A stretch of DNA of 52,881 nucleotides, counting the filler, from Jimgerdemannia flammicorona (lineage: Eukaryota), in assembly GCA_003990765.1 (NCBI GenBank). It is 2 parts of 2 records of this genome, joined end to end, with 100 filler letters (N's around TTAATTAATTAA, not from the genome) between each part and the next. Parts side by side here need not be neighbours in the genome. Positions count along the whole stretch, not along the records: positions 26,493 to 52,881 come from RBNJ01000733.1; 1 more part is not named here. One strand, given 5' to 3'. A program made the position numbers and the translations under genes. This document shows, piece after piece, positions 18,883 to 52,654 of this stretch. The notes beneath the pieces are model-generated. The model saw only the letters and a program-made list of their open reading frames with translations, ran no database searches and had not been told where the DNA came from. Every line of letters starts with the position of its first letter. The stretch's first letter is position 1.

Positions 18883-20568
<1,686 letters not shown>

Positions 20569-22231: not shown

Positions 22232-22265
<34 letters not shown>

Positions 22266-26492: not shown

Positions 26493-26503
26493 AAAAAAAA
26501 AAG

Positions 26504-26535
<32 letters not shown>

Positions 26536-26629
26536 GAAAGAAAGAAAGAAAGAAAAAAAATGCAAAATGGTATTAGGGTTTAAAATAGACTGGTTACTGT
26601 ATGCAGTAGTATAGATTGTATAAAGTTAC

Positions 26630-28507: not shown

Positions 28508-28615
28508 CAACTATTTAAGCCAACCTCTGCACTGCACAGCAAACCAATTCCGATATTCATTTTGGTGGAATCAACATCATTTTTCTGGTAGACGTCAACT
28601 TGCCGGCGAGTGTGC
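28508..28615 (+). mobile_element. Short relic of a Pif1-family (Helitron-like) helicase
   Basis: ATI*ANLCTAQQTNSDIHFGGINIIF followed by a frameshifted SG..QL, resembling the Pif1 motif (P)FGG(I/V)NII(F/L)xGDFxQLPPV. Confidence 0.45.
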
Positions 28616-31600: not shown

Positions 31601-31703
31601 CCGAAATAGTCTAACTTGACGACACCCGCAACCGTTTGTTCGTTTCGTAAACCCGCCCGCTTGATTCGCCAAACCCTCCCGCGAGTTCTGCTCTCCTCCC
31701 CAG

Positions 31704-31860
31704 GCTCTCTCGCCCCCGCGGCTGGCAATGAGGTAGCACTTCGTCGGCGTCACTGGCCAAAATTCTGAGCTACTTTATAACCCTTCACGGTCGCTGTTCT
31801 CGTGTTCGCAATGTGATCGTAGACTGTATGAGAAATGCTCGTCTCACCGACAGCAGGAGA
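31704..31860 (+). repeat. Diverged ~155-bp direct repeat, copy 1 (copy 2 at 34480-34630)
   Basis: Shares ctctcgccc..cggctggca..cacttcgt(c/t)ggcgtcactggccaaaatt..agctacttt..aacccttc..gtgatc..aatg(c/t)tcg..cgacagcag with copy 2. Confidence 0.8.
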
Positions 31861-31991
31861 ACCAGCCCTAGATTCGCAAACGACCTGAGCTACTACCTCT
31901 TTGGAGAATGATACATCGGCAACACAACCGGTCACGTAAGTAATTTGGTTTCTGCCTATTTTTTTTATTTTTATTTTTTACGCTTTTTGAC

Positions 31992-33254
31992 AGGTAAATT
32001 TCACAATCTAATAATGACGCTCCCATACACCGACTGCACACAGGAATGGAAAAGGTGTCGCCAGTCCTATTCACCTCCCTTACAGCCCAGATTCCTCGCT
32101 CCAGCCTTGCTTCCATATGTCATCGAATGCGTCAACAAACTCAACGAAGAACTTGGCCGTGGAGTTGAATGCCAGGATGAGCGACATTACATTCGGCATT
32201 GTTTGCAAATACTGCTTCGGGTATGCGATGAGGAACTCGATTTCCAAGACGTCAACAGCAGGGAAAACCTCAAGGTAAGAAAATCAACTTTCGTCTTTCG
32301 CATGCGTAACTTCTTTTTTTTTCTTTTTTCAGTGGGATTCAGCGCCATTCTGACCTTTTAAAATTGGAAATGCCATCAACGACCCTCGCAGAATGACTTC
32401 CTCGCCTTCTTCAAAGGTATCGCCTTCATATATCTCCGCGTTCCCGTCATCAAGCACACCGAATTGGGTCAGCGCGGCTACAAGCCCGCCCACAAGCGCC
32501 TTGACGCCTTTACCAATCGCGCCATTAAAAAATCCCTCGCCCAGGCCGTCCTCTTCCTCATCAGCAATACCGACAAGCCACACTTTCGTCCTCTAATTCA
32601 CGAATACCAACTTCGAGGAGGGCACCATCTTTGCTGGACACGACACTACCTCACATACAGCTTCATTTTATCGCCCAGCATCCTGAGGTTAAGCAGTGGC
32701 TTTTGAGGAGATCAGGAGTCAGTTGGGACCTGGCCCGATCGATCTCGCTGCTTTGACGACCGAGTCGTTGGGAAGCATGAAGTATTTTACTGCAGTCATT
32801 AAAGACGTCATGAGAATGTTCGAAAGATACCACTTTTGGGCGGAATGGTTCCAGCTGGTACATTATCTCAAATTTTCCCGCTCTCTTGCGTATACAGTAT
32901 CGTTTTGGACTGAAATTTACAATCGCTAATTCCGTTCCTAACCATTCGCCACCCTCTTCCTCTCCAACTCCTCTTCTCGAATCCCGAAAAGGTTGACCCG
33001 ACCCACTGGCTCGAACACGCCGACGCCGACACCTTGTAGGATGTCGACCACACTACGACAAAATCCACCAAACTTGAGCTCGTCTTCCGCACGCCTGCCT
33101 TGGCCTGGCTCAAGCTCCGTATCTTGATCGTCACAGTCGTGAACAAGTTCGAGCTCGAGCTCAAGCTCAGGAGGGAACCACGCTCGATACTTACATGATT
33201 TTCACCATGCTTCCCAAGGATGTCGTGTGGGTCACATTGAAGGAGCGTAATTAA
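31992..33254 (+). pseudogene. Degraded cytochrome P450 pseudogene
   Basis: EWKRCRQSYSPPLQPRFL..LLPYVIECVNKL (WxxxR helix), FEEIRSQLG..SMKYFTAVIKDVMRMF (ExxR-like), FSNPEKVDPTHWL (PERF-like), LAWLKLRILIVTVVNKFELEL, ..PKDVVWVTLKERN*. The heme FxxGxxxC motif and I-helix are missing; stops and frameshifts are present. Confidence 0.75.
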
Positions 33255-34479
33255 ACCGCCGGAGTCAGAGCCTTAAATGTCTTTGGTGGTTGGGTTGGTA
33301 TAGACCTAAACTTCAGTTTCGACAGGTCGAGGCGATTAAAAAAAGTGATTAGGAGTCTTAGATGGTCTTCTTTCAAACATTACTTTTTGTAAATAAACTA
33401 CCTTTGATATGCACATTTCCTGAAACACACTGCCATTCGGTACTAAATTGCTTCAACTGTGCGCTTATGCCAACCGCAAGCGATTCCGAATTTAGTCTTA
33501 AGGTCGCGGATGGCAGCCGTTCATATCCGGAATTTTAAGGATTAAAAAAATTCTTGTTATCGTGCGTCATTCACCGCAGCAACTAGAGATATTTGAATCT
33601 AAACCAGGAGTAAGTTTTCCTTAACAGCTGGCTCGTGACGATAGTCCGCCTTCAGTCAACAGGAAGTTTATTCACTAGGAAAAATCGCAAGGTTTGCATG
33701 TTTCACCTTGATAATTTTCACATACAACATTCAATGGTCCACTGTTGCATGTAAATTTGCAAGGAACATCGCTCCCATAATCGTACAGATGAAGAATACA
33801 TGTTTCCTTTGTTGCTACTATGTTTCATAACTCTTCCCATTTTCTAAACAAAATTATTCATTACCGTAAGATCCCAATATTTGTATGATAATAATTAGTT
33901 TCTCCGCGAACACCTATATTTTGTGCTGCCATGGCTCAATCAAAATAAAGGGTAGATTCTGGTATATGACTCCGGTTGATTTACGTACCGCTTAAATCCC
34001 CGTCTTACTACTCCGAACCCAACCCTCCCGTCCCTTCGTGAATAATAAATTGGATGAATATATGTTTGTGTATTGGGCGAATGCGTGCATGAGGAAAGTT
34101 CTGTCTCGAATGCGTTGCATCGGTCAGTTCGAAGAACCCGACATGAAAAGGTGTACAAGAGGGAGGTGGGTGGGAGTGAAAACCGTATGGTAGCGATTAA
34201 GCGGGATGGGAAGTGGTCAGGATGTTGGCGAACAATAATTGCATAATTGCTAATTATAAATGCATATTGCCTAATCGAGTAATACACGTCTTTAACGCGC
34301 TATCCCTTCGGGATCCCTTCAACCGCAATATGTAATATAAGAATCACAGTCACATTGAATATGGATGCTTAGTGATGTCAGCTAGATCTCTTCTAGATAG
34401 TGCCGCGTCTGGGTGCTCTCATCGCACGGAACACCAGTGCCCGTTTGCACAGCGGCTCCGCCTGTCTGTACTTGCTATG

Positions 34480-34630
34480 GCTCTCGCCCTTCGGCTGGCA
34501 GCGAGGGGGCACACTTCGTTGGCGTCACTGGCCAAAATTTTGGAACGAAGCTACTTTGCAACCCTTCGCCATTGCCATTTCCGTATTAGCGACGTGATCA
34601 GAGTAATGTTCGCCTCATCGACAGCAGAAG
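34480..34630 (+). repeat. Diverged ~155-bp direct repeat, copy 2
   Basis: See copy 1 at 31704-31860. Confidence 0.8.
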
Positions 34631-36211
34631 GAAACGAGGACCTGTGTATGAAGATACATATATACCACACACACTCTCTCTCTGTGCAGCGGCAGAGGAC
34701 GGCACTGAGATAACGGTGGAGTCAAGACGTTTGGCGTGCACCGCGACCTACCCCTATCGCCATACTACTTTTGTGGAAGAACACTGTCGGCTGGTAAACA
34801 GTACGGGATAGTAGACTGTGACTGGCAGCGCGGAGTTCGAGTATGACGAGATGGTTGGTTTTTCCTGGACTTGTCACCAGGAAAAATGACATATATACCA
34901 GTTTCGAGGACTTGGACGCCGTCAGTAAAGAGATTATTTTGGGTGCTGACAGTCGCGCATTTATCAGAACAACTTAGATGTTCCCAGAATTCTTCGATCT
35001 CGAGAGTGCAGGCTGTCCTTGTGTGCTTTTTTAAGCAATCATTCACCATGAAAACCTTCTACTCGGAAATATCTGACAAAAATCTCTCGTTGCGTTTTTT
35101 TTTTTTTTTTTTTTTTTTTTTCTGGCAATCAGTGGTATCATATGTTTGTCAGAGTACTCGATGCACATTAAAAAAAGAAGAAGAAAAAAGGGTCGGCAAG
35201 TGTTATAAGCGAATTGCTCGTTCGCAACGATATCGTGAGAATCAAGGCTTCCAAAATAAAAAATTAATCGTTGAATGAGTCAGGTTGCGGGGGGGGGGCA
35301 ACGTCTTCATGCGGCCTGAAGGAAAGCGAGCCGAAGGTCGATCGTTCTATTTTATTTATTTTAAAATGATGCCACTGGAAGCAAGGGTGTAGTAGAGCAC
35401 GCGAAAAATAGGACAAAAGGAAGTGGTTGGGAGGGTAGGTAAGTCGGCAAGAGAAACACAAGTGGATGTGCGTTCTGGTATTATATTTCATGCTATTGCG
35501 TAAAAAAAGCCTTTCTCTTTCATCGTTCTGCGCGCTTGAAATCTCACCAAGTAAACCACCCGACGTTTGCTTTGCTACCGTTTAAATACAATGGAATCAC
35601 ATTTTACATCTTGTAACCCAAATAACAAACTGTGTTGGCCATTGTCGCTCGCCATGTAAACTTCACCACACTTTACAATTCATCGTGTACATTGGAATTT
35701 TAACATAGGGAGTCCCTGTAACCACGCAGATGCATCTGAAAAAAGATTTGTATCACATAACGTGATGGCTTTGTCGGCGGCGATGTAAGAGTGTCGGCTT
35801 TCCCAAAAGGAAAATTGAAGTGGTGTAGTGACACCCCAACGCCAATTCTTTAGAAGCACTAGTGTGAGAGTTCTAGCAAATGAAATCGTTAATGTCTTTA
35901 TGAAACGTCCGATAGAAAACATCAAGACAGTTATTGTAGGACGTCCATGGCATCCGGAAGGTGAATAATCCTAAACTTTGCTCGTTTTGGGGATTTGGAA
36001 TCTATACCCCGAGAGAATATGCCTCTCTTCCTCTCTCCCCCTCCCCCCAAAAAAAACAAAATAAAATAAAATAAAAAATAGAACATTCCGCCCTGTAGAA
36101 ACCCGACATGCAAATTGTCAATCGACGCAGTGGCGGGCAGAATTTAAATTTTAAGCGATCACTCCTGCAAAATATATTAACAGACCGAATGGTCACGAAT
36201 GTAGAAAATGG

Positions 36212-36369
36212 TGTTGAAATTTCTATTATTTTGACATCTTGATAATGTGACTTATATGTAACTATGTCATCTTTGAGTTATGTTACTTGCAGCATAAATA
36301 CACACTATCTGGAATAATAAACAATGCTCCTCTCTTCTCCCCACACTATATTCCAACTAAGTTACAACA
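36212..36369 (+). repeat. Copia 5' LTR (158 bp)
   Basis: tgttgaaatttctattattttgacatc...ttccaactaagttacaaca; matches 52507-52654. Confidence 0.93.
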
Positions 36370-36371
36370 AA

Positions 36372-36383
36372 GGTTATGAGCCC
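36372..36383 (+). promoter_or_regulatory. Copia primer-binding site complementary to the anticodon arm of initiator tRNA-Met (hemivirus-type half-tRNA priming)
   Basis: GGTTATGAGCCC lies 2 nt after the LTR; its reverse complement GGGCTCATAACC matches the tRNAiMet anticodon stem-loop. Confidence 0.85.
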
Positions 36384-36914
36384 CACTTAGCAGCTAATAA
36401 GAAACACCTCTCTAAGACTATATGCTACTCTACACCAAGATGTCAGTGCAGATGAACCAAGGAACCAGCATGAGTATGACAAACACAGCAGGTGTGGATA
36501 CTCCTGGAATGGATATAATGGTCATAGTTCTCATAGTAAACATAAATATAGCCAAGAGGTTGATTTCTATCTTTGATAGTAAGAACTATACCATTTGGAT
36601 ATTCTATATGAGCAATCTTCTAAAAGAATACAACTTGACACAGTATATGAAACTGTAGGTACAGATTCAAGATTATGATACTGCAAATAATTACTGAGCA
36701 TTATAAGAGATTGCATCTATATTATCAAACTAATAAATGAAGCTTATAATGCATGCTATGACAGCTCACAATGTATAGGAGACTCTATATAATTATTATA
36801 TATAAGCATTCTCATCAAATTGATTTCATCTAAAATCTCAGCTATTCAATCTATAAATAAAACCCAAGAAGAGTATCTGTAAATATGCCAATTATATCAA
36901 TAATCTGATAAATC

Positions 36915-38096
36915 CACCCCTTTCTCTACTATCTTACCAGTTATAATGGTTTGGTAGGCAACCTTCCAAGTCCACTTTCTATAATTATTACCCCCTCTAC
37001 CTTGGGTTGGTTTGCTATACCTGTTGCAGGGCAGTGGGAGGGAGGCAATGGTGATGAGTTGCCTCTTTATTGGTGTCTGATCAGTGTCTTCTCCACTTTT
37101 TTGTAGTCTCTAGTGCCTTTGGCTGTATCTGGAGTACATCCATTTTGGTGCAGCACCTTCTTCCTTTTGCCATCACCAACAAGGTATTGTCTTGGTATAT
37201 CTCAGGCTATGTAGGAAGTCAGTTGACCTTGGGTATCAAGTGCTCAGTATAGGTTACCTGCAGGTCCTTGGTACCTATAGTGGAGTCCTCTGGCTTTGGC
37301 AAGCTTCCCAGTGAGTATGGTTCTGGTGTAGGTAACTGCTTTTTGGGTGTTGTCGGGATGGGAGGGGAGATGGCCATTACAGATAGGAGGAAGGGTGATA
37401 ATGGTGAACCAGTAGGATGCCAGGCTGGGGGCAGTTGTTGGGGCTGAGGTGGGTGCTACTTCAGTGGGGTCTTTTGATTGGTGTAGCATGGTTAGGTGGT
37501 AGGTGTCACTTTTGACTTCTTTTGGCGATTCATGGGGTTGGGCCCTGGTCATCTGGGGGGGTCAGGGGGTCCAAGGCTACCCATTTCAGGTGTCTTAGCT
37601 GCACTCAACTAGAACTGAGAGCTGATATGGCAATATGATTGAGGCCCATAGGCTTGAGTAGTGAGGTATTGGGGGTCTCCTCCTGCCTCATGTATAAGTT
37701 CTTTACTCACCTCAACTGGGAGAACTAGGCCCTACCCACTATGTTGTATTTTGATAAGAGTTTTTCTTTATCTATCATTCTCTTTGGAGTGGCAGAGGCT
37801 ATTCTATTCAGCTCAGATATGGTCTTATATATATATTGGGTTCTTGGGCATATGCTTTTGGTCATTGGCATATGGCTGGGTTTCTCCTGATGGTAGGGAG
37901 AGTATGGTGTGCAGAATGAGATATGGGCCAACATAGGCCCTACTGTACCTGATATGGTCAAGCTGTTGGACAATAGTTAGCTTAGGTTAATAGGGGGGCA
38001 GTACTTGATGGGTAGTGGAGGAGGGTTTTGGCCTATATATTCTAGGTTCTCTTCCAATAAAAATCTGTGGAACATTAAGTCTATTAAAAAAAAAAA
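36915..38096 (+). mobile_element. Poly(A)-tailed retroposed insertion (5'-truncated LINE, SINE-like element or retrocopy) inside copia gag
   Basis: 10-bp TSD CTGATAAATC (36905-36914) / CTAATAAATC (38097-38106); AATAAA at 38056-38061; A11 tail at 38086-38096. Removing the insert restores the gag frame IINNLIN|QVNSLRIPAE. Confidence 0.8.
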
Positions 38097-39938
38097 CTAA
38101 TAAATCAGGTAAATTCCCTAAGAATTCCAGCAGAGTATATTAGTAATAAAGACAAGATTCTGATTCTTATAAGAGATCTCTCTAAGGTATATAATATTTT
38201 AATAATAGCTATATATATATGAGAGTAGAAAACTTATAGACTACACTTATATAACAATGAGCCTCATCAATAAAGAGATGTATTAAGGAAATGGTAGTAA
38301 TGATGATGATGAGAAAAATATTCTACAGATTATACAAATGAGGTAAGAAGTATCAATAAGACCAAAAATATAAAAAATTTAATAAAAACTACCATTACTA
38401 TAGTAAGTATAAATATATACAAAATGACTGCTATTGTAAAAATAAGGAGAATGATAAAAATAAATATAAAAGTCAGTATTGATAATATGGGAGCAGTAGA
38501 AAGAAATATGATAACAAAGAGTAATATAATATAAATACTAGCAAAACTAATAAAAACCATATTTTATATATAAATAATATATGCTGTGCATTTGGAGAAA
38601 ATATCATTTAAATTTATATCTAAGCTATATACTTTTAAGCTGGTAAAAAGTAATAATATAAATAAAGTATATGTCAATATAGCTGATATCAATAATGTAT
38701 AGCTTATAAATTCAGATACTATATAATATATAATAGCCTACTAAGAATGATTCTCTATATATGAGTCTTTCAAGTATCTGATACTAATCAAATTAGATAA
38801 TAACAATATCATATATACTTAAGAAAGAGGAAATATCAGTATATATCTTTATAAAAATATCATAGAGCTTACTAATACTTTTAAGAATATACTATATATT
38901 CTAAAATAGGAAAGAATCTCTTTTCAATTAACAAAATAATGGCCTGAAGTAATAAAGAAATATATATATCTAATGAGAGCAATAGTATACAGTTTGAAGA
39001 ATGATAAGAAGATTATGATAGTATTGAATGAGATAATCTTTATAATCAATAGTATACCAAGTGATATAAAAATCTCTCTATATATAATAACTATATCTGA
39101 TATATCTAATATATAGTATCAATACTTAGAATATATAGAAAAATTGAGTCTAGAAAGAATGATTAGGAATAGATCTATACATATAAGAATTACTAGCAAT
39201 ATATTCTAATGATAACTTCTATAAATATTATATTTTAAATAAAGTATCCCAGTATCTATTTGGGAAACAGATGAAATATATATTCAGTATATTCAATTTA
39301 ATTTATTTAGATATATATAATCTAATATATACTACTTTCTATAAAGAGAAGAGATATTTTATTACATTTATCAATAATTATACATATAAAGTATATATAT
39401 ATTTCTTGTTGGTAAAGAGTGAAGTCTTGGAGAAATTCAAAGAGTTTAAAGTAATTGTGAAAAATAAAACAAGATGTAAAATATATACTATATACTCAGA
39501 CAAGAGATATAAATATATCAATAGTATATTTAAGTAGTATCTGAGAAAATATAGTATATACTATCAGATAACAGTGCTATATATATTATAGCAGAACTGT
39601 ATAGCTGAGCAATTTAACTATACAGCTATAGAAATATATAGTGAGTATAGATCAGATTATCATATTCTTATTAGGCTGAAGTCATCAATATAGTAGTATA
39701 TATATATAACTAATATATATCTCAAGTATTGAGTAAGGAATCTGACAATAATAATAAGTAATCAAGAAATAATAATAATCTTACTCCTGAGTAGAACAAA
39801 GTCTGATATATCACATCTATATATATTTGAATACAATATATATATTTCTAATAAGAATAATACTATTTAATACAAGTTTGAGCTAAAAGCTGGTAAGTAT
39901 GTATATATTTCTTAGATATTCTAGCAAGATATATATAT

Positions 39939-41385
39939 TGTAACAGACCGAAATGTACCACCCAAATTATAACTTAGCCAGATGATACGAACAATTAGCA
40001 TACTTACTCAGCATGATGTGACTTCTAGTGTATCATAGTTACCCATGCCTGCCACACTTATAATTAGCCAAGACACCAGATCAGGATTGTTTACCTGTAT
40101 CCTGAAGACACACTCATGTCCTGCAGACATACTCATGTTCTGTAGACACACCTATACCCAGAGGACATACCCAAGCATTACCAGAAGTAGTAAATCTATA
40201 GTTAGCCATATAGCAACCAGATAGCAACCAACTTGTATAAATTACCCCAGAGATAAGAGTGAATAAACCTCAGTCTGAATTGAAGTGCAAACCAAAGAAG
40301 CCTCTAAAGATTGAGCATTGGTCTCCTTATTCCACTTTGGTCTACTTTCTGATACAAAGCTGATTTTGCCAATAAGTTCAAGGAAGAACTTCACCACCTT
40401 TGGAATTATTGGTTTGCTTGCCAGATAAGCCTGAAGATTTCTGCCACCTAAAAGAAAGCTGCCTTGCTCAAGCTAGTTTCTGATGCAACTTTGCAGTGAT
40501 CTATTCACACAAACAAAGTCAGTCTTTGACACAACTTTGCCAAGAGACCCTTTCTAAGCTGCCATCTCATTTCCCAGTTAAAACCACCAATTATGGAGAA
40601 TCCACATCATCCACTGCCTTTTGAGTTATCCACTGTATTCCCAGTTGAAGCTGCCAATTTAGGAAGAATCTGCACCATCATATTCCCAGAAGAACCTGAT
40701 TTGGAAGAACCTGTGCCATCTGAGTTAATTTCCAGTTAAGCTGTTGTTTTCAAGAAGTCTGCCAATTCAGGAAGAATCTACATCATCCATCATTTCTAAG
40801 TTATCCACATTCCCAGAAGGACCCAATTTGTGCCACCCAAGTTATTATTCCCAGAAGAGCCCGATTTGTGCCATCCGAGTTATCCATTGTTCCCAGTGAG
40901 CCTGGTACAGAAGAAACCACACCAGTATAATTCCCAGTGAGTCAAATCAAGTTGTCTGCCAAATTTGCATAAGGAATATTGCCAAGATCATCCTGCATAA
41001 GAAATCCACTCATGCTATATGAGATTGTCATGCAGAAATCACATAAGGAGAACTGCTAAATTGCCAGACCATCACTCACAGAGATCATCATGCTACACAG
41101 AAATCACCTGCTACTCAAGAAGGAAACCACTCACACTATATACAAATTCTGCTATTCCCAGTTGATCAAAGAAGAAAAGACACAAATCACTGCTACACCT
41201 AGAGAACTATCTCAATAATGAAACCACTCACAGATATCCAGCTTGACTATTATACTACTAAATACCAAGGACCTCAGGAATCTTAGAACATTTTGTTGCT
41301 TTTTGACAAAGTAACTGGGGGCTCAAGCTAAACTTCATCAACCCCCAACCTTGTAATTTGCCTCCATTGAGCCAGGCATATTACA
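39939..41385 (+). repeat. Gypsy 5' LTR (~1447 bp) with internal 19-bp tandem units and TTCCCAG-anchored degenerate repeats
   Basis: tgtaacagaccgaaatg...gccaggcatattaca; collinear with 48803-50264. Confidence 0.95.
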
Positions 41386-41387
41386 TT

Positions 41388-41402
41388 TGGGGGCTCAACT
41401 AG
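41388..41402 (+). promoter_or_regulatory. Gypsy primer-binding site, tRNA-Pro type
   Basis: TGGGGGCTCAACTAG lies 2 nt after the LTR end; TGGGGGCTC is the start of the classic tRNA-Pro PBS. Confidence 0.75.
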
Positions 41403-41416
41403 AAAGATTTCAATCA

Positions 41417-43300
41417 ATGTGACTTTTCAGCTCACAAGAACCCACAGTCAAACTAGATACATTTGACACAATACCAACCTCTACCACTACAGGAGAATCA
41501 GTCATCACTAGCATTTGGACAGAAAAAGAAGTAATCACATCAAGACTTGCTAACTACCCAGTATCAGAAGGTTCCCAACCAGAAGGTAGTATAGCCTGAA
41601 ATCTCCAACCAGATTGACCAGACAATACAGGTAGCCCTGCTAGAGATTTCAGAGAACTTGTACAAGAACTAGAAGATCTTATCACATGAACCTGAGACTT
41701 TACAGCCAGACACCCCATACTAGTCCTGCTAATCTCACTAATAGAACATTTACCACAATCTCTTACAGAATTGGAAGTAGCCCCTACAAGAATACCTAGA
41801 CTTATCCCACTTCATCCAAGATCCAGAACACTATCCTCAAGATACCCAAGCATCCTCATCTCCAGTGACAGCTCAGAAAGCAAATTAGAATCAGAATCTG
41901 AACCTGAACCAGAATCAGAAAAAAGTGATGAAGAAATGGCCACTTCACTGCCAACCTTTGCAGGATACCCAGAGAAAGACCCCAGAGAATTCCTTGATGG
42001 AATTGAAGAAATTGCAGTCTTGAGGAATCTCTCAGATGAAAGAAAAATTGCCATCTACAAGGCTCAGCTTAGAGAACCAGCCAGAGGAATTTTCCATCAA
42101 ACAGCAAATAACCCAGACTCAGAACTGGCAAGACAGATGCAAGCAGCAATGTCCTATGAGCTAGAATATGAGGCCATGGTCCACTGGCTCATTGAAAAGT
42201 ATACAGAAAATGAAACCTATCACAAGGCTCAGGAATCCATCATGGGGATGAAGATGAATCTTAGAGAATCACCCAGAGCCTTCTTTACAAGAATCCAGAA
42301 GAGAATGCATGCTACTGGGTTCAATGCCACCAATTAGGACATCATCAGTCCAATAACCTTCATGAATGGAATTCCCCCAAACATTGCCCAGCATGTCCAC
42401 ACCCTAGGCATCAGAAGGTCTGAAGAGCAAGTAGATGCAGCCCAAGGATTCTTTGATGTCAGACAAGGAACTACCTAGAGTGATCATGACAGAAAAGAAG
42501 AGAAAAAAGACATCCTAGTCAAAGCCCTACAAGGACTCCTTTAAGGACAGGAAAGATCTGAAGAAAGAAGACCAGCCAAGAAAGGGAAGAAGGATAGAAG
42601 CAAAATCCAAGACCTTAGTTCCAAGTTAGACTGATTGGTTGGACAGATTGAAAAACTCACTATATATAAAAATCAGAGCTACCAAGACAATAGAGGATAC
42701 TCACTATAGAGGAGCCAAGGTTATCCACCCAGAGATAGCAAGGGTTATCAGCAAGAAGAAAGAAGATATCCTGTCTGAGATAGAGCCCAAGTCCAATGCT
42801 TCTACTGTGGACAATTTGGACACTATGCCACTGAATGTGACAATAAAAGAAGTAACCAAAGGGACTCAGAACCACCAAACTGAAGGAATGACACCCAGTA
42901 CAAGAAGACTGAAGCCCATCCTATTGAAAATTTCGAGGAAGCAAGCAACAGTGAAGACTACAGTGACCTAGACTTGTACCCTACTAAGGTTACCACCCGA
43001 AAGACAGTCTACCTAGCAGAAAAAAGGAAGAGACCTGTAGGAAGGCCATCCAGGAACATCAGCAGAAGAATCATCCAAGAAGAAGATGAAGAACATGAGG
43101 AGGAACAAGTAGAAATACCTCTCCGAACCCCCTCACCTTTTGTTTCTGAGACAAATGAGTTACCACCAAAGATGAAGAAATGGAACAAGAAGAATGAGAA
43201 CCTGCTGCTCCAAAGTCTAAGAAGAAGTACACTCACAAGACCATACCTAGAGATATTTACAATGAAGCCTGGCAGAAGATTCAAGAAGCCAAAATAGAAG
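41417..43300 (+). pseudogene. Gypsy gag with long N-terminal extension, capsid-like region and CCHC zinc knuckle
   Basis: ATG at 41417 is in frame with LPTFAGYPEKDPREFLDGIE..LREPAR..ESPRAFFTRI and with CFYCGQFGHYATEC (42797-42838); interrupted by TGA/TAG/TAA stops. Confidence 0.85.
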
Positions 43301-43439
43301 TCCCCCTTCTGCAGTTCCTGTAACTGACACCAGCTAGAGTCTGAAACAAATTGCTAAGAACCACCAGGTCTAGCACTGGCTGAGTCCCAATCCCACAGCA
43401 AGAACCAGTTCCCATCCCTGTTCAGGCAGCTAAGAGACA

Positions 43440-43810
43440 TATCAGCACCTATCTACATAGAGATATTAGAGGGCAAAAGGTGAAGATCCTCATAGACACA
43501 GGAGCAGCTATCTGTGTCATTGCCAAATGATTCTTAGACACCCTCCAATGGCCCATTGATGGACCATCCAACCTCAGAATTATAGTAGCAGATGGAGCCT
43601 GAACTCAACCCCTTGGAGAAGTATGAAATATCACTATCTCCCTTGGACACATTCAGTTCTCCATCCCTAAAGCTGTTGTTACTGAAGCTGTCACCTATGA
43701 CATGATTCTTGGTACCAACTGGATGAAGGAAATGAATGCAGTTGTTGATATTGGCCAACAAGTACTCAAGTTTGACTACTGAGGCAAGAAGTACAGAGTT
43801 AAGGTAACCA
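43440..43810 (+). pseudogene. Gypsy aspartic protease
   Basis: RGQKVKILIDTGAAICVI ... YDMILGTNWM. Confidence 0.9.
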
Positions 43811-45109
43811 GCTATGAGCAATCAAAGAAGAAGAAGAAGGTCACCATTCAGGAAGAATATGCCTGCAGCAAGGAGTCTACTATAGAAGAGGAAGAAGAAT
43901 CTGAAGACGGAAATGATCCCAGACTCAATCCCCAAATTAATCTGATAGATGACAGACCAGAAGATAATGTGTGGGCCAAGAACACCATCCCTATCACCAT
44001 TGGAGCTATTGTAGGAGAAGCCAAAGGATGCCCTATCTGCCTTAAGAGACATAAGTGTCCTGAGCACTCCTCCAAGATCATGGAAACAAGGAAATCGCCT
44101 GACACAGCCTGCCCAGAGTGCAGGAAGAAGAAGAAGAAATGCAGACATGTTTCAGAAACACCTGCAACCAAAGCTGCAGAAGTACAAGCAATTTGGAGTC
44201 AAGAATCATCTGAGGAAGAAGAAACTTCTGATCAAGAAGTCTCTGAACAAGAAGCACCTGAAGAAGAAGAAGTCTCTGAACTCATTCCCTGGGATGATTC
44301 TTGTTGGACACCACCCAAGGACAATGACCCTTGGAATACAGAAGAAGGACCCAGTATAATTACCATTATCCCAAAGAAAGAAACTCACCAAGAGAAGGCT
44401 TTTTGGCTTGGAAGGTGTCTACACCAAATGATCTTTCACTCTCCCCAAAACTATTGCTATCAGTGTCATCTGTTGGATCAACAAGAAAGACAGAGACCCC
44501 AGAGACCAGAACCCCCAACTATACTTGCACAGTCAACCACTTTTCAAGAAGTTACCACAAGGTTATAAAGTCAATTTAGAGGACAAGGCTTCTTCACCCA
44601 AACAGAAATATATCTCTTGTCTACCCTTCCCCCAACTTATGATCAAGATGGGTATCGATTCCCAAGACAACAAGAGATCAACAGCTGGGAACATCATTTC
44701 TGAGCAATGGGATATTGTAACCATGGGAGACACCCTGACTGCTGAGACTGCAGACATCAGAAGATTCACCTCAGTCATGATATTGCAGTCCATACTTTAA
44801 AGAGAGGAGACAATAGAGACCAGATCTGAAAAAGCCAAACCAGGAAGCCAGGAAGAAGAGTCCTTAAGATCTATGATTTGGGAGAAGACATCCTAGCTCT
44901 CATTAGGCATACAACTTGCCAAGAATGGGCAGAAGATGCTACCAACTTCATAGAAGCCCTAGACCCTACAGGAAGAAGAGGAATCAATTATCTCCAAGAC
45001 CCCTCTACTGGAGCCAGATAGCCACACCTCAATCTTAGAGCTTGGAGGCTCTCTACTAGTGGAGCCTCAGCCCTAGGACAGCCTGAACTTAGCAAGGATA
45101 TTACCCAGT

Positions 45110-45500
45110 ATGCCCTGCTATATCCCAAGGCCAAACCCCTGACCAAAGCCCACTCAGATGATATAGAGTATGATCTTCACAGTCTGGAGGATGAATCTAT
45201 CAAACCTGGAAAAACCTTCATAATCAGAACTGGGTTAGCCATGCAGGATCTTATATCCAACTGACCTCAAGGTCTGGACTTGCCAGACAAGGAATAACTG
45301 TGGAAGGAGAAACTATTGACCCAGGATATACAGGCGAAATCAAGGTCATCCTGCATAACAGCAGCACAGAATAGCACTGAATCATTAGAGGACAGAAGAT
45401 TGCCCAAGCAGTCTTCATGAAAGTCAAGACTCCCCAGTTACAAGAAGTCTCTGAACTAACTGAAGGAACAAGATAAGTCAAGAGATTTGGAAGTTCAGAC
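45110..45500 (+). pseudogene. dUTPase domain within the gypsy pol
   Basis: PKAKPLTKAHSDDIEYDLHS (motif I), IRTGLA, SRSGLA (II), ETIDPGYTGEIKVIL (III), GQKIAQAVF (IV), R*VKRFGSS (V). Confidence 0.9.
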
Positions 45501-45899
45501 AGAAAGGAAGTACACCTCCTTCAAGTCAACCATCTTAAGAGAAATGTTCCCCAGCAAGTGTATTGGCAACCAGTCAGACTGCACAAGAATCTTATCCTGG
45601 AGCCTGGAGAACAAATAACCTTTGAAATCTTTGCACCATCTGTCCTCAGAAACCTTTTCTTTGAACCCAAAGAAGATATTTCCCATCTGGATATAGAGGG
45701 ACACATATTCTCTGACAAGATGAACCCAGTACACTCCCAAGCAACCAATCAAAGTTGAGAAACCATCATCTTGCTGAAAGGAACCATCATAGGACATCTG
45801 GTGCCTTTTCTCAACTGAACTCATAGAGAAGTTTATGAACTAAACCTATCAGGAAATGGCAAAAGATCCCAGAAGAAAGGAAAGGCCCCTCTGTGACCC

Positions 45900-48306
45900 A
45901 GGAGACAGTAAAACCTTCCACCAATATTGGAGAAGAATTGACACCTCAACAACAACAACAACTAATAGAACTTCTCAACAAATATCAAGATATCTTCACC
46001 ACTAATTATGGAAATCTGTCATACAATCCATCATATCACCACAGCATAAATACAGGAAATGCAACACTCATCTGGCAGAAACCCTATAGAATACTCCATC
46101 ACTTGAAAACATTCAAAAGAGAGTACATTCAAGAACTCTTAGACAATAGAGTCATCTGACCCTCTACCAGCCCTTGGGCCAGCCCTATACTTATTGTACC
46201 AAAGAAAGGAGGATGGAGACTCTGCATGGACTATAGAAAACTCAATTCAGTCACTGAAAAGGATTCCTATCCTTTGCCCCGAATTGATGATTTCTGGATC
46301 AGTTACAAGATGCCAGATACTTCAGCAGTATGGACCTCTTCACAGGATTCCATGAGATCTCCATGGACCCCAAGGACATTCAAAAGACAGTCTTTCTTGC
46401 TCTAGGAAAACTGTTTGAATACCTCTGAATGCCCTTTGGACTCTGCAATGTACTCCCCACCTTTCAGAGGATGATGAATTCAGTCTATGTCCCCTTGATC
46501 CACTACTGCCTGATTGTATATAGATGATTCCAACATCTATTCAGCAAATTTTGAAGAACACCTGCACTACCTAGAGGAATTCATCAAGCTCACCTACAAG
46601 AATCACTTGAGATTGAATGCAAAGAAATGCTACTTTGGGAAACAGAAACTTGAATTCCTAGGATTTATGGTTTCAAAAGAAGGAACTCATACAGATCCAA
46701 AGAAAACCAAGAAGATCAACAATTGGCCAGTACCCAAGACTCTGAAGGAAACACTATCATTCCTGATGCTAGTATTCTACTACAGAAGGTTTATCAAGGA
46801 TTTTGCCCAAATTGCTACCCCAATTAGAATCCTTCTCAAGAAAGGAGTGCTATTCAAATGGACAGAATCACAGGAAAAAGCTTTCAGAGAACTCAAGAAC
46901 CGCATGACTACAATACCAATCCTTGTATGCCCCAATCTATAGAAGCCATTCATCTTGTATACAGATGCTTCTAAAGATGGCCTCAGAGCAGTTCTGTCCC
47001 AAGAAGGATCTAATCAACAGCACTATGTGATAGCTTATGCAAGCAGAGCTACTAACTAGCAGCATATGAACTATGACCATATAGCCCTCAAATGGCTATT
47101 CAACTACAAGGAATCCGCCAGAATCCTAGCCTGCTGGATCCTTATCCTTTAGGATTACAAAATCACCATTATTCACAAAGGAGAGAAAGCCCACAACAAT
47201 GTTAATGTACTTTTCTGCCAGCCCCAATGAACCAGAAGAAGGGTGTCCTGAGGAACTACACCCTAAAGGAAGCTCCTCAGACCATCAAGGAATAAGAAGA
47301 TCTCATCCAAAAAGAACATCAGAAAACCCACTAAGGACAGACAAGCATAGAAGATAAGATTCGAAAACAATATCAACATTGGTTCCACCTCAGAACCCAA
47401 GTCCGAGACATTATTCAGAAATGTGACATCTGGCAGAAGTATCAAGGAAAGAAGAACTATCAAGCCCCTTTGCAACTGATTCTCTCACCCACTCACATCT
47501 TTCAAAGATGAGAAGTAGATGTAATTGGACCTCTATCAGTTACACCAAGAAAAAACAAATATATCCTTGTATTTGTAGAACATCTGACCAAGTGGCCTGA
47601 GGCTTTCCCAATGGAAATTGTAGATGCTCTAACCATTGTAGGCCTTCTCCATAGACTCACACTCAGATATGGACACCCAGAAGAACTCATCTCTGACTGA
47701 GGCACAGAATTCATCAACAATATAATCACAAGTTATACTTGAATTCACAAGATACATCTCAAACAGACTACATCATACTATTTCCAGACCAATGGCATGA
47801 CAGAAAGGATGAACCAGACCATCAAGAAAGGACTTACCTGAGTCAATTCTACCAATTGAGACCTCTGCTTACCTGAGATCCTATGGGAAATTCAGAACAC
47901 CCCTGTCACCTCAACCAAACAAAAGCTATTTGAAATGATATTTGCCAAGAAAATAAGAACTACTGACCATAAGAACCTTGGAGATCTTCTAAAGAAGGCA
48001 GAACAGTTACATAATCAGGCCCGAGGTCAGATTATCAAAGCCCAAGAAAGACAAAAGAAGTATTATAACCAAAGACAGAAGGATCAGGAGATCAAGATTG
48101 GAGATCAAGTACTAGTTTGGAGAAGTATGATTGAAACAAACTTTGCCACCAAATTGGAGCCCAAATGGAAAGGACCTTATCTTGTACATAACATCAGAGG
48201 AACCAGCATCTATTTAAGAAGCATCAATAGATGAACTCTGAGAACACCAGTATATATCAATCACCTCAAGATATACCTCTTCTCACATCATGAATCAGAA
48301 AATTGA
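45900..48306 (+). pseudogene. Gypsy reverse transcriptase, RNase H and integrase (GPY/F, no chromodomain)
   Basis: [95 protein letters not shown]; multiple stops and frameshifts. Confidence 0.95.
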
Positions 48307-48802
48307 CAACTACCTCCAAACTCTTGTTCTTAGTTCCCTCTAAGCCCTATCAGTTCCCCTACCTCAGTTCTAGGAACCCAATGGAATATATCTTCAGAAA
48401 ATCCAAGTTCATCAAGAGAACCTCACTTTGGCCAAGAGGCTACTCCAGGTCCACTAGCTGCAGGCATACTATATAATTGGAGAACAATTGCAGAATCTTC
48501 CTCTTCCAGACCTAGCCTATGTCCATAACACCACTGGCCTGAACAGAAGAAATATTACTGCTGCAGACAGACTATATACAATATATAAACAAAATTCTTC
48601 TGCCTTAATCCAGGCCCAGTTCTCCCTGAATAACCTCTAAAGGATGACACTGCCCATCTACCTCAGCATCATTCACCAAGTGGAGATCCTATTTTTCAAG
48701 GAAGAAGAAGAGCCCCTGGAATGGAGTGACCATAGCTCAGATGATGATGATGGAACAGATATAGATGCAGAAGCTGCTTATGCCTATTGGGATGATGACT
48801 GA
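48290..48802 (+). pseudogene. Extra ORF (ORF3, 170 codons) between integrase and the 3' LTR
   Basis: Single frame from ATG 48290 to TGA 48800-48802 with only four internal TAA/TAG stops, consistent with mutated Gln or Trp codons; acidic tail EEEEPLEWSDHSSDDDDGTDIDAEAAYAYWDDD*. Confidence 0.7.
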
Positions 48803-50264
48803 TGTAACAGACTGAAATATACCACCCAAATTATAACTTAGCCAGATGATGTAAACAATTAGCATACTTACTCAGCATGATGTGACTTCTAGTGTATTAT
48901 AGTTACCCATGCCTGCCACACTTATAATTAGCCAAGACACCAGATCAGAATTGTTTATCTGTATCCTGAAGACATACTCATATCCTGCAGACACACTTAT
49001 GTTCTGTGGACACACTTATGTCCTGCAGACACACTTATGTCCTGTGGATATACCTGTACTCAGAGGATACACCCAAGCATTACCAGAAGTAGTAAATCTA
49101 TAGTTAGCCACATAGCAACCAGATAGCAACCAACTTATATAAATTACACCAGAGACAAGAGTAAATAAACCTCAGTCTGAATTGAAGTGCAAACCAAAGA
49201 AGTCTCTAAAGATTGAGCATTGGTCCCCTTATTCCACTCTGGATACAAAGCTGATTTTGCCACTAAGTTCAAGGAAGAACTTCACCACCTTTGGAATTAT
49301 TGGTTTGCTTGCCAGATAAGCCTGAAGATTTCTGCCACCTAAAAGAAAGCTGCCTTGCTCAAGCCAGTTTCTGATGCAACTTCACAGTGACCCATTTATG
49401 CAAATGAAGCCAGTCTTTGATGCAACTTTGCCAAGAGACTCTTTCCAAGCTACCATCCTGTTTCCCAGTTAAAACTGCCAATTTCGGAGAATCCACATCA
49501 TCCACTGCCTTTTGAGTTATCTGCTGTATTCCCAGTTGAAGCTGCTGATTCAGGAAGAATCTGTGTCATTGTATTCTCAGAAGAACCTAATTTGGAAGAA
49601 CCCATACTATCCAAGTTAATTCCCAGTTAAGCTGTTATTTTCAAGAAGTCCACTGATTCAGGAAGAATCCGCATTATCTGCCATTTCCAAGTTATCTACA
49701 TTTCCAGAAGGACCTGATTCGTGCCACCCAAGTTATTATTCTCATAAGGGCCCGATTTGCACCATCCGAGTTATCTGTTGTTCTCAGTAAGCCCAGTATA
49801 GAAGAAACCACACCAGTATAATTCCCAGTAAGCCAAATTGAGTTGTCCACCAAATCCGCATAAGGAATATTGCCAAGATCATTCTGCATAAGAAATCCAC
49901 TCATGCTACATGAGATCATCATGCAGAAATTGCATAAGGAGAACTGCTAAATTACCAGACCATCATGTACAGAGATTGTCATGCTATACAGAAATCACCT
50001 GCTACTCAAGAAGAAAACTGCTTGCACTACATATAAATTCTACCATTCCCAGTTGATCAAGAAGGAAAGACACAAATCAACGCTATATCTAGAGAACCAT
50101 CCCAATAAGGAAACCGCTTACAGATATCCAGCTTGACTATTATACCACTAAACACCAAGGACCTCAGGAATCTTATACTTTTTGACAAAGTAACTGGGGG
50201 CTCAAGCCAAACTTCATCAACTCTCAACCTTGCAATTTGTCTCTATTGAGTCAGGCACATTATA
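48803..50264 (+). repeat. Gypsy 3' LTR (~1462 bp)
   Basis: tgtaacagactgaaata...gtcaggcacattata (terminal CA mutated to TA). Confidence 0.95.
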
Positions 50265-52497
50265 ATATTAACTCTGAGAACTATATAAATATTATACATA
50301 TAGTAATATTATATAATATATACTTTAATAAAAAAGGAAATTAGAAACTCTATATAGAAGTATCTATTGAAACCTCTACTTCAGTATCTATATCTCAGTA
50401 AGTTATATAATATCTGATATCAACCTATTTAATAAAGTAAAATTATTTTCAACTACTATATATATCTGAGCTAGAATTATCTAAGCTAAGGATAACAGAG
50501 ATTAATAATAATAAGACTGATAATAATGATGATAAAAGGTTTATTAAGAGCATAGAAAGCCAAAGTAATAGCCCAAGAATGAGACTCATTTTAATTTAAA
50601 GAGTTATTGGAATATGCTAAAGATATTTCAATATAAAGACTATATGAGCTATATTGAGATATATAAATACATATTTACTACAATTTCTAGTGAGCCAAAT
50701 ATATATGATAAAGTAATAACTTTCTCTAATAATAAGAAATAGAAGTAAGTCATAAATAAATAGTATAATTTACTCATTGAGAATGATATATATGATCTAG
50801 TATTCTTTTCAACTAATTGATAAGTTATAGAATCATATTGAGTCTATAAAATTAAGCACAAAAATAATAGAAGTATAGAATAATATAAAGCTCATTTTAT
50901 TGTTAAGGATTATTTACAAGATTACAGTATTGACCATAATGAGATATTCTTACTAGTATTCAAGCTTACTTTAATGAGAATACTTCTTATAATCAGTACT
51001 ATATATAATTTAGAAATTCATCAGATAGATGTAAAGATAGCTTTTCTTAATAATAATATTAATACAGAGCTATATATTTACTAGCTACAAAGATATAAGC
51101 AGAATAATAATCTCATATATAAACTATATAAAGAATTATATAGTATCAAGTAAGCAGCTTATTTGTAGAATAGAAAAATTAATAAATATCTTCTTAATAA
51201 TAACTTTATATATTACAAAGTAGATAACTATATATATGTTCAATACTATATTGATAGAGTAGTATTTATATATATATAAGTAGATGATATTATTATTATT
51301 ATAATAAAAACAAACTTAATAAAGTAAAAGAAGCCCTGCATAAGGAATTCAAGATAACTGATATGGGTGATATATCCTTTCTTTTGAGAATATTCATTAT
51401 ATGTAATAGGAGTATATATACTATATATCTATATAATTCTTAAATGATTCAATATGAGCAAATGCAAGCTAGTAAACATCTCTATAAAAACTTTAATAAA
51501 GTTAAAGAAGTCTAATACTATGCTAGAGAAAACTATACCAATATTCCCTATTGATATGTAAGTAGTCAGTTCTCTTATATATCTTATACTAGAAATGAGG
51601 TCCAATATTTCATATACTGTAAATAAGATAGTACACTACTTATTATACTATATGCTTACCTTTGATTGATTGAGCAGAAGTAATAGTAATAATAGTAATA
51701 ATAAGAATGATATACAACTATCTAGATATATGATGCTAATTGGATAAGAGACTTAGATAATTGTCAATCTATAACTAGGTACTTCTTTTAGTTAAATAAT
51801 AAAGGAGTCATTTTATGGCAAATATATATGCAGAATTTAATAATAATATCATCTATATAAGCAGAGTATCAAGTATTATCTACAGTAACAAAAAAAAGGC
51901 ATTTGGCTATACTAGCTACTAAAGAAACTTAGATTTAATCAGAAATAGCACTCTATACTTATCTATCAGAATAATCAGTCTATGATTGCTATAGCAAAGA
52001 ACTTTATTTATTATAGTAGAACTAAACACATTGATATATAATACTATTATATAAGAGAATATAGAGAACAGAACTATATACTTAGAATACATCCCCATGA
52101 AGCATATGATCACAGATTTACTTACTAAAGCCCTTCTGGAATCAAAATTCAAGTAATATAATAAAGAAATGAGTCTTATAGTAAACTATATACCAGTAAT
52201 GGAACTATATGCCAGTAATAGATAATTATGGGACATTTTCATAATGATGAAAAGGAAGCAGAAAAACAATGCAATATATCTTTCTACATCTCTCTCTTCA
52301 AGTATTATGTTATAGTTATTCATCAGTTGTTCTTCTTCTACATTTGAGATTTTATACCATCAGGACTTATCTATATCCTACATTTTCACTATGGTTTCTT
52401 ATGTTTTAAGCATTAGTAGATAGCATTCTTTTAGTATATTTGCAGTCATTTTGCAGTTGTTACTTAGTTGCATTGCATTCTTGCATATTATCTCGTT

Positions 52498-52506
52498 GAG
52501 CGGGAG
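52498..52506 (+). promoter_or_regulatory. Copia polypurine tract
   Basis: GAGCGGGAG immediately before the TGTTG of the 3' LTR. Confidence 0.7.
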
Positions 52507-52654
52507 TGTTGAAATTCCTATTATTTTGACATCTCAATAATGTGGCTTATATGAAACTATAGTTATGTCACTCGACATGTAAATACATGCTATCCGGAAT
52601 AATAAAAAATGCTCCTCTCTTCTCCCCACACCATATTCCAACTAAGTTATACCA
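52507..52654 (+). repeat. Copia 3' LTR (148 bp)
   Basis: tgttgaaattcctattattttgacatc...ttccaactaagttatacca followed by TSD aatgg. Confidence 0.93.

Follow-up and report, generated by a model that had tools for sequence, protein, structure and literature searches.

Background

That transposons decay through methylation-linked C>T changes is not new, and a published dataset already contains the three DIM-2 genes found in Jimgerdemannia flammicorona, an early-diverging mycorrhizal fungus (Endogonales, Mucoromycota); a report on the mutational footprint of these genes was not found in our literature searches. We analysed a window, i.e. the whole stretch of 52,881 nucleotides from this species, in which a first-pass annotation had noticed RIP-like hypermutation of repeats in a host that it took, rightly, to lie outside the Dikarya. 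A protein encoded in this genome matches J. flammicorona proteins with 100% identity across 87% of its length.

Canonical RIP acts in bursts of clustered, strand-coordinated changes. As described in the cited part of PMC12543289, the RIP system of Neurospora crassa and other Pezizomycotina resembles our case in its TA-rich dead repeats made by C:G>T:A changes and in its DIM-2, HP1 and Clr4/DIM-5 genes. On the other hand, in J. flammicorona RID was not found, CpG leads, the young family studied has no strand polarity, intact and near-identical repeats survive, and the flanks are clean at the element under study. The DIM-2/HP1/DIM-5 branch of Neurospora RIP shows a very strong CpA preference and spreads to single-copy flanks in the cited parts of PMC12543289 and bioRxiv 10.1101/115501.

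In Zymoseptoria tritici, >98% of the C>T changes fall at CA and CG is not mutated, according to the cited results of PMC8016269. A Dim2-type enzyme and transposon C>T changes are common to both fungi, and RID is unneeded in mitosis there (PMC8016269). A Dim2 with intact catalytic motifs is predicted at three loci in J. flammicorona, but the restriction to CpA with CpG spared is absent: per cytosine, CpG is hit about 6x as often as CpA here, and CpC is near CpA. Moreover, J. flammicorona belongs to the Mucoromycota, and DNMT5 is not reported for it in the material cited.

Phycomyces blakesleeanus, whose transposons carry CG and CHH 5mC, is of the same subphylum, and its DIM-2 groups with the protein of our locus C8187; however, it has DNMT1, whereas three DIM-2 genes and no DNMT1 were found here, and the cited sections on it do not report mutational decay (PMC11258239, PMC7862722). 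Tuber melanosporum also has a large, repeat-rich mycorrhizal genome with CpG as the predominant and CpA as the secondary target, but it belongs to the ascomycetes and possesses RID and Dim2, and a CpC component is not listed in the part cited (PMC4352252). The TpCpG hypermutation of the Pucciniomycotina, from the cited part of PMC3318451, is likewise a CpG-centred transposon C>T effect outside the Ascomycota, although here TpCpG changes less than any other CpG context, and changes also occur at non-CpG sites. RIP-like decay outside the Dikarya was suggested earlier for Zoophthora radicans and other Entomophthorales; that is another phylum, the basis was dinucleotide indices, and the cited text gives no substitution spectrum (PMC11105155).

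Structure of the locus

The features of the window are collected in Table 1.

Table 1. Features of the window (o/e: observed/expected).
Feature	Position	Strand	Remarks
Gene-bearing control region	1..36211	.	47% GC; CpG o/e 1.06
Clr4/DIM-5-type H3K9 methyltransferase gene	21075..23517	+	Chromo, pre-SET and SET (Pfam); predicted to act upstream of DIM-2 as its partner
Young solo terminal repeat of a tyrosine-recombinase retrotransposon	33992..34321	.	CpG intact
Old Ty1/copia retrotransposon	36212..52654	+	Heavily decayed, split by two insertions; from direct sequence reading, LTR repeat, and integrase/RT/RNase H similarity to young copia ORF
Copia target-site duplication AATGG	36,207-36,211 and 52,655-52,659		
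Copia 5' LTR	36212..36369	+	0 CpG; then primer-binding-like site; nearest outer CpG 15 bp away
Unclassified repeat, ~1.15 kb	36930..38080	.	Separate, sitting in copia; 46.5% GC, 2 CpG
Copia internal segment A	38107..39938	+	GAG-pre-integrase and integrase; 21.8% GC, 0 CpG
Ty3/gypsy retrotransposon	39939..50264	+	Nested in copia; target-site duplication ATAT; 41.5% GC, 25 CpG, o/e 0.06
Gypsy 5' LTR	39939..41385	+	
Gypsy 3' LTR	48803..50264	+	TA in place of terminal CA
Copia internal segment B	50265..52200	+	RT, RNase H; 22.9% GC, 0 CpG
Copia 3' LTR	52507..52654	+	Milder decay, 2 CpG left; nearest outer CpG 33 bp away

The first-pass annotation placed the start of the decayed block at 38,107, which is wrong, as it begins at 36,212. 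Its description of the copia coding DNA as TA-rich with collinear motifs was reproduced: both quoted decayed motif strings were found (at 39,114 and 52,027), and the integrase, RT and RNase H of the window copia are collinear with the young copia ORF. The copia and gypsy block together retains 31 CpG against 552 expected. The unclassified repeat inside copia has matches in 4 other loci (78-80% identical, 630-1,180 bp), and a search of the window against Rfam gave 0 matches.

Mutation spectrum and controls

The two LTRs of the single gypsy insertion record changes made after insertion. Their first 185 bp carry exactly the 10 differences counted earlier, all of them transitions, and over the full length there are 1,272 identical columns, 141 transitions, 7 transversions and 61 gap columns (ts/tv 20). 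With C>T polarity assumed, the changed sites are 62/72 at CpG, 49/222 at CpA, 28/158 at CpC and 1/181 at CpT. The transversion load is very low and the transitions extend beyond CpG, as had been claimed.

The same order of contexts was repeated in four alignments. In a young copia family of 30 copies, 1,798 of the 7,155 CpG observations (25.1%) were lost, while C>T changes, counted with all CpG-derived sites excluded, affected 216/8,621 CpA (2.5%), 145/8,458 CpC (1.7%) and 46/9,693 CpT (0.5%). Per cytosine, CpG loss is about six times that at CpA, and CpC almost equals CpA. Private transversions occurred at only 40 of 85,557 sites (0.05%) and private T>C at 15 of 42,964; between pairs of young copies there are ~18-55 transitions per 738 bp and 0-2 transversions. 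Compared with the transversion rate per site, the rates per cytosine are elevated ~300x at CpG, ~50x at CpA and ~10x at CpT. CpG loss also varied with the 5' neighbour, being 18.3% at ACG, 11.8% at CCG, 10.3% at GCG and 6.9% at TCG. CCG (CHG) methylation as the origin of the CpC changes was rejected, a C preceding CpG being changed in 0.95% of cases versus 2.5-2.6% at CCC/CCT.

The C>T effect is limited to transposons. The claim of a CpG-rich flank held with a CpG o/e of 1.06 over positions 1-36,210, but this flank is not wholly single-copy, as it includes paralogues (70-83% identical) and the young 330-bp repeat. Ten paralogous host loci, at 70-83% identity and perhaps subject to selection, keep their CpG (o/e 0.96-1.26), with ts/tv of 1.3-1.9 at nine of them and of 3.5 at the tenth. 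The copies of the young repeat are 81-100% identical, and a comparison of 9 of them gave 1-10 transitions and 0-3 transversions; this repeat, young and with CpG intact, is a control which shows that mutation does not set in immediately on a new repeat. An ORF that we take, from its motifs, to be recombinase-like adjoins the repeat unit in locus L162. CpG is back 15 and 33 bp outside the copia edges, in the flanks of this one element. Old copia 3' ends were aligned in 19 of 30 loci, 11 of which reach the end. Among the 10 besides the window, 8 have 0 CpG and one, L054, keeps 12 next to a CpG-rich flank; L047 has 11 left next to a flank that is free of CpG, and in L036 none is left next to a CpG-bearing flank. 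Edge sparing at these ends is suggestive only.

Strand polarity is absent from the young copia family, in which both strands are changed: 1,015 of 1,991 neighbouring changes are on the same strand (155 of 312 for non-CpG only, null 157.6), and strand heterogeneity is 1.08 and 0.97. Of the three families, a single one has a slight surplus of same-strand neighbours (384/620, null 355.7, p 0.018 uncorrected); changes are weakly clustered in the LTR set (p 0.029). The load per copy is overdispersed, with values of 3.9 for CpG and 1.95 for non-CpG in the young family, and of 6.0 for non-CpG versus 1.6 for transversions in gypsy pol. In 15 gypsy LTR copies the load ranges from 0.4% to 21% and tracks neither flank composition nor transversions; neighbourhood was rejected as its driver, for it is uncorrelated with flank GC, CpG and TpA in the 15 of 30 copies with a usable external flank.

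The transversion clock reads 0.00047 : 0.0019 : 0.0143. When the young rates are multiplied by 30 (our own arithmetic), the old copia family is predicted to have lost 54% of CpA, 41% of CpC and 13% of CpT, and 48-52%, 52-59% and 11-13.5% were observed, respectively. For gypsy the clock over-predicts, with 9.7% against 5.9-7.5% seen at CpA and 6.7% against 4.4-5.6% at CpC. Taken as a whole, the clock fits within ~1.5-fold at CpA and CpC. Since the clock-scaled young rates predict the TA-rich window copia, this element would be ~30x older rather than hit harder. The copia RT matches form a series from open through TGA-broken to TAG/TAA-broken frames, and intact copia ORFs survive, with open frames reaching 1,522 codons.

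Methyltransferase genes

Three DIM-2-like loci, C8187, C11271 and C3657, are diverged paralogues that retain an intact motif I, PCQ and ENV, and by sequence they are assigned to the DIM-2 family rather than to DNMT1. They have an RFTS-BAH-MTase layout (Pfam), in which the RFD and BAH of the C8187 protein fall below the cut-off. The closest solved structure for a DIM-2-like protein is Neurospora DIM2 (E 6e-39, vs 1.5e-25 for DNMT1), and in a tree of 16 rows with C8187 as the only one of the three loci, the DIM-2 clade has a support of 100/98, C8187 grouping with Phycomyces DIM-2 (92/93, long branch). Homologues of DIM-2 also occur in Endogone, Phycomyces, Basidiobolus and Gigaspora. Neither RID nor DNMT1 was recovered. 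For RID, two genome HMM scans (PF00145, TIGR00675), one of which picked up each of the five methyltransferase genes known from all routes together, gave none in this fragmented assembly of 35,354 contigs, in which a gene could be missing. The genome search with a DNMT1-like query matched only a DIM-2 locus, and PF12047 only the C11271 DIM-2. PMC9963178 lists for this species three DIM2, two HP1 and three Clr4-type proteins, whereas DNMT1, RID1 and DNMT5 are missing from its list. The start of the ORF at 21,075-21,467 matches a J. flammicorona Clr4 entry of that dataset. A DIM-2/HP1/H3K9 methyltransferase set is present, with HP1 taken from PMC9963178 alone and Clr4 in the window. A TDG-like glycosylase gene, cut by a contig end, is also present, and lost T:G repair as the cause is not supported.

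Discussion

We consider it probable, from the spectrum and the gene set, that the locus results from DIM-2 methylation of transposon heterochromatin followed by steady deamination. New transposon copies would enter H3K9me/HP1 heterochromatin, where the DIM-2-type enzymes, the sole DNA cytosine methyltransferases found, may methylate them; in vitro, both CG and non-CG sites are methylated by DIM2. As judged from the mutation spectrum, methylation would be strongest at CpG, weaker at CpA and CpC, and weakest at CpT. Methylcytosines would then deaminate singly on either strand, the T:G mismatches presumably being poorly repaired, and the pattern seen is a steady, context-specific loss of C in each copy. 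CpG would go first, leaving the practically CpG-free gypsy of 41% GC, and CpA and CpC later, leaving the copia of 22% GC. Within this reading the decay is continuous, and the TA-rich copia stands at its old end, with no separate burst. The hits look independent, clock-like and on both strands, despite the overdispersion between copies. This best fit is the second of the alternatives in the first-pass annotation, deamination of methylation at CpG plus non-CpG.

Several observations count against passive decay, namely the very large mutation excess with a TDG-like glycosylase gene present, the overdispersed copy load, which among LTR copies follows neither flank composition nor transversions, the weak same-strand excess in one family, the weak clustering in the LTR set, and the over-prediction by the clock in gypsy; many small premeiotic doses would equally appear clock-like. 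Also, Neurospora DIM-2 is said in the cited part of a review to prefer CpT, which is the least-hit context here, and this counts against the methylation reading.

The explanation that survives second best, possible but doubtful in our view, is a DIM-2-dependent active mutator, in which a paralogue or a partner deaminase would make the C>T changes in repeats. It would work in mitosis, like the Zymoseptoria system, or a little at each sexual cycle, like the heterochromatin branch of RIP in Neurospora. How large the excess is, the three diverged paralogues and the overdispersion among copies point to this mutator, and as far as the sources are cited there is precedent in that Z. tritici Dim2 lifts the mitotic mutation rate >tenfold (PMC8016269) and DIM-2 mediates RID-independent RIP. 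Both precedents, however, are described there as strongly CpA-specific, while CpG leads ~sixfold per cytosine here; the Neurospora branch spreads to flanks, while CpG resumes so close to the copia edges; and the young family lacks polarity. Doubtful too is a RID-free, DIM-2-only mutagenic defence of the Endogonales, with one of the three paralogues actively making C>T in repeats (CpG > CpA > CpC >> CpT).

Canonical RID-dependent premeiotic RIP on any duplicated DNA is largely refuted and highly improbable. In its favour, the C:G>T:A changes are restricted to repeats with sharp edges, the LTR pair has a ts/tv of 20, and a fragmented assembly could miss a gene. But the changes target CpG ahead of CpA, RID was not found in the two scans and is reported in Pezizomycotina only, and a kingdom-wide survey scores the species no_rip. 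Furthermore, the species has 37,472 repeat matches >1 kb at 95-100% identity, long copia frames stay open, host paralogues (possibly under selection) are unaffected, and the young family has no strand-coordinated runs. The RIP indices suggested as a check are merely borderline in copia (TpA/ApT 1.05-1.11, (CpA+TpG)/(ApC+GpT) 0.99-1.07) and speak against RIP in gypsy (0.73 and 1.56, respectively). "RIP-like" holds for the outcome and fails for the process, given CpG as the main target, no polarity in the best-resolved family, transversion-clock scaling, intact elements and RID not found. APOBEC-like editing in retrotransposition, plain AT-biased drift or an assembly artefact, each of negligible probability, would suit LTR elements being the clearest targets and neutral DNA drifting AT-ward, but they are refuted because the pattern is symmetric, post-insertion and context-specific: both strands are equally changed, the LTRs of one insertion diverged afterwards, the context ranks recur in four alignments, intergenic DNA 15 bp away is unaffected, and target-site duplications mark real insertions.

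With DIM-2-type enzymes as the only apparent cytosine methyltransferases, the DIM-2 signature may be readable in J. flammicorona without RID, DNMT1 or DNMT5. TA-rich, RIP-looking relics can form outside the Dikarya without RID, and so RIP calls based on indices may err in both directions. The predicted methylome would have CpA at ~17%, CpC at 12% and CpT at 3% of the CpG level, a prediction which separates passive deamination from an active mutator and bears on the origin of RIP. If active DIM-2 mutagenesis were true, repeat-directed mutagenesis would predate the Mucoromycota/Dikarya split, and RID would have come later, speeding up a DIM-2 pathway that already existed.

Transposon block in the window

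In the window, the C>T decay is observed in a copia element into which a gypsy element is nested. Outside this block CpG is abundant: the observed/expected ratio over positions 1-36,210 is 1.06, and CpG is back 15 bp upstream and 33 bp downstream of the copia element. The block itself has 31 CpGs versus 552 expected. GC content is 22-23% in the copia coding segments, which lack CpG altogether, and 41.5% in the gypsy element, where the CpG ratio is 0.06.

Features of the window, positions along the whole stretch
Feature	Position	Strand	Details
Clr4/SUV39 H3K9 methyltransferase gene	21,075-23,517	+	chromo, pre-SET, SET; ORF start matches a J. flammicorona Clr4 entry of PMC9963178
copia element	36,212-52,654		sequence read directly and repeat search
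copia LTRs	36,212-36,369 and 52,507-52,654		target duplication AATGG
Unclassified repeat in copia, ~1.15 kb	~36,930-38,080		46.5% GC, nearly without CpG, end near A run
gypsy element nested in copia	39,939-50,264		LTRs 39,939-41,385 and 48,803-50,264; target duplication ATAT

Both decayed copia motif strings quoted in the first-pass annotation are present in the window, and its count for the first 185 bp of the gypsy LTRs was reproduced (10 differing sites, 10/10 transitions). The whole LTR pair has 141 transitions versus 7 transversions; if polarity is taken as C>T, 62/72 CpG, 49/222 CpA, 28/158 CpC and 1/181 CpT sites are changed. The classical RIP indices, suggested there as a check, are borderline in copia (1.05-1.11; 0.99-1.07) and negative in gypsy (0.73; 1.56).

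A dUTPase-like stretch upstream of the gypsy RT (45,180-45,480) was recognised by eye. Copies of the unclassified repeat (78-80% identical) lie at differing positions in or beside old copia copies at loci L051, L052, L053 and L060. Short tandem arrays occur at 10,899-11,026 (intergenic, 16-bp unit) and at 20,304-20,429 (coding, 21-bp unit, in a presumably TGS1-like gene). Between contigs C732 and C733, N runs surround a 12-base AT-only palindrome (26,393-26,492), probably assembly filler.

Substitution spectrum in repeat families

Loci were sampled from the genome's own assembly (231 Mb, 35,354 contigs): 30 gypsy LTR loci (40/3,011 candidates scored), 30 gypsy pol loci (40/2,013), 30 loci from the old copia family that includes the window's element (40/1,249; 27 of sufficient length) and the best 30 copia RT loci (150/1,188). 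DNA searches preferentially pick up copies decayed to the same degree as their query; the HMM search is biased towards intact copies. The best 30 copia RT loci (L095-L124) form one young, star-shaped family. They come from a single burst, with 94-96% identity to one copy, a CpG-rich parent (o/e up to 1.4) and some frames open over >1,000 codons.

CpG loss in the young family is 25.1% (columns: CG 5,357, TG 952, CA 825, TA 21, other 5). With all CpG-derived sites excluded, C>T changes number 216/8,621 at CpA, 145/8,458 at CpC and 46/9,693 at CpT, so CpT is least affected yet not spared. Private transversions were counted at 40/85,557 sites and private T>C at 15/42,964. The order CpG > CpA > CpC > CpT recurs in both gypsy sets (LTR and pol); the old copia family has 0 CpG remaining, and its CpA and CpC losses are far above CpT. 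By 5' base, the young family ranks A (18.3%) > C (11.8%) > G (10.3%) > T (6.9%) at CpG and A (4.8%) > C (2.5%) > G (2.0%) > T (1.0%) at CpA. This order is opposite to the TpCpG target described for rusts and Microbotryum (PMC3318451).

Burst or clock

Strand symmetry is observed in the young family: neighbouring changes lie on the same strand in 1,015/1,991 cases (for non-CpG changes, 155/312 vs a null of 157.6), and strand balance per copy is binomial (1.08, 0.97). Pointing the other way are gypsy pol, with 384/620 same-strand neighbours vs a null of 355.7 (p 0.018, uncorrected), mild clustering in the gypsy LTR set (p 0.029) and overdispersed mutation loads between copies. Among 15 LTR copies, load ranges from 0.4% to 21%, unrelated to flank or transversions.

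Losses scale with age. Private transversion rates are 0.00047 in young copia, 0.0019 in gypsy and 0.0143 in the old copia family. By arithmetic, the young rates x30 predict losses of 54% at CpA, 41% at CpC and 13% at CpT, and the old copia family shows 48-52%, 52-59% and 11-13.5%. For gypsy, the young rates x4 predict 9.7%, 6.7% and 1.9%, and 5.9-7.5%, 4.4-5.6% and 1.1-3.3% are seen. Therefore, one steady rate set covers the three ages, within ~1.5-fold at CpA and CpC. The 150 copia RT matches form the same kind of continuum, beginning with open frames (<=1,522 codons), followed by frames broken by TGA and ending with copies broken by TAG/TAA.

Flanks, host paralogues and other repeats

Ten loci paralogous to the window flank (70-83% identical) have CpG o/e of 0.96-1.26, with ts/tv of 1.3-1.9 at nine loci and 3.5 at the tenth; since these paralogues are old, their retained CpG is compatible with homology sensing. 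The window copia is better preserved at its 3' end than 8/10 other copies are over that stretch, and for an effect of gene-rich flanks on copia 3' ends one case is supporting and two are contrary. A multi-copy host gene family (31,878-33,524, L151-L157 and L159; 70-77% identity) is clustered on contig C601, and some members directly adjoin CpG-free DNA.

The 330-bp solo repeat at 33,992-34,321 retains its CpGs, and nine copies each carry 1-10 transitions relative to it, mainly at CpG in the more altered ones. With up to 99.7% identity to copies elsewhere (L160-L168), this terminal repeat belongs to a recently active family. On other contigs a second copy of its first 149 bp comes after the terminal repeat, which adjoins a tyrosine-recombinase-like ORF (L162), an arrangement which we take to resemble split-direct-repeat retrotransposons, Ngaro-type.

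Predicted methylation machinery and proposed mechanism

The non-Dikarya lineage suspected in the first-pass annotation is borne out (Endogonales, Mucoromycota): a methyltransferase fragment from this genome matches two Jimgerdemannia flammicorona proteins at 100% identity across 87% of the fragment and an Endogone protein at 56% identity (3 matches among 611 candidates).

HMM and protein searches of the genome gave three DIM-2-like loci (contigs C8187, C11271 and C3657), all of which retain an intact motif I, PCQ and ENV. Three contigs also carry DNMT2-like pieces, interpreted as two genes. The best solved relatives of the C8187 protein are 9BAQ/9BAZ/9BAP (E 6e-39, vs 1.5e-25 for DNMT1), structures of Neurospora DIM2 according to PMC11315935. 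A tree built from 16 of the 18 protein-search matches (all but P0004 and P0021) places the C8187 protein, with a long branch, in a DIM-2 clade (100/98) next to Phycomyces (92/93). The three paralogues are mutually ~30-37% identical in aligned exons. A TDG-like gene is also present. The Clr4/SUV39 gene lies 13 kb from the transposon block in the window, across the scaffold gap.

DNMT1 was not found in the genome with a DNMT1-like protein and PF12047 as queries, and therefore DIM-2-type enzymes may carry out CpG methylation by themselves. RID was not found with two HMMs, the query being other than RID's own sequence. Independently of these searches, the entries for J. flammicorona in PMC9963178 comprise three DIM2, two HP1 and three Clr4-type proteins and RNAi genes, with no DNMT1, RID1 or DNMT5 among them; the same source limits RID-1 to Pezizomycotina.

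An active DIM-2 mutator converting C>T in repeats is a less likely alternative. It has precedents in Z. tritici Dim2 (PMC8016269) and, in Neurospora, the heterochromatin branch of RIP (bioRxiv 10.1101/115501), but both are CpA-specific. As for RIP, a survey of 1,239 genomes reports signatures in ascomycetes only and scores both J. flammicorona and Endogone as no_rip (PMC12543289); Tuber, with a CpG and CpA bias, has RID (PMC4352252), and in Zoophthora RIP is suggested by RIP indices (PMC11105155; for known background, see PMC13297926 and PMC7862722). We found no publication on repeat hypermutation in Endogonales among titles and abstract openings, a scope outside which most subscription literature lies.

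In steady methylation-linked decay, H3K9me/HP1 would recruit DIM-2 to transposons, where it may methylate CG and non-CG sites, and the methylcytosines would deaminate under inefficient repair. The CpG C>T excess over transversions is ~300-fold per cytosine; unrepaired chemical deamination at soil temperature, against a neutral rate of ~1e-9/site/year, might produce an excess about that large. Neurospora DIM2 methylates CG and non-CG sites in vitro (PMC11315935), and Phycomyces transposons are reported to carry CG and CHH methylation (PMC11258239). The hypermutation of repeats described in the first-pass annotation is real and its end state mimics RIP, but the defining features of RIP fail. With the spectrum, transposon confinement, young-family strand symmetry, scaling with age and gene set observed here, the process fits steady C>T decay by DIM-2-type enzymes, through a presumed methylation step, better than RIP.
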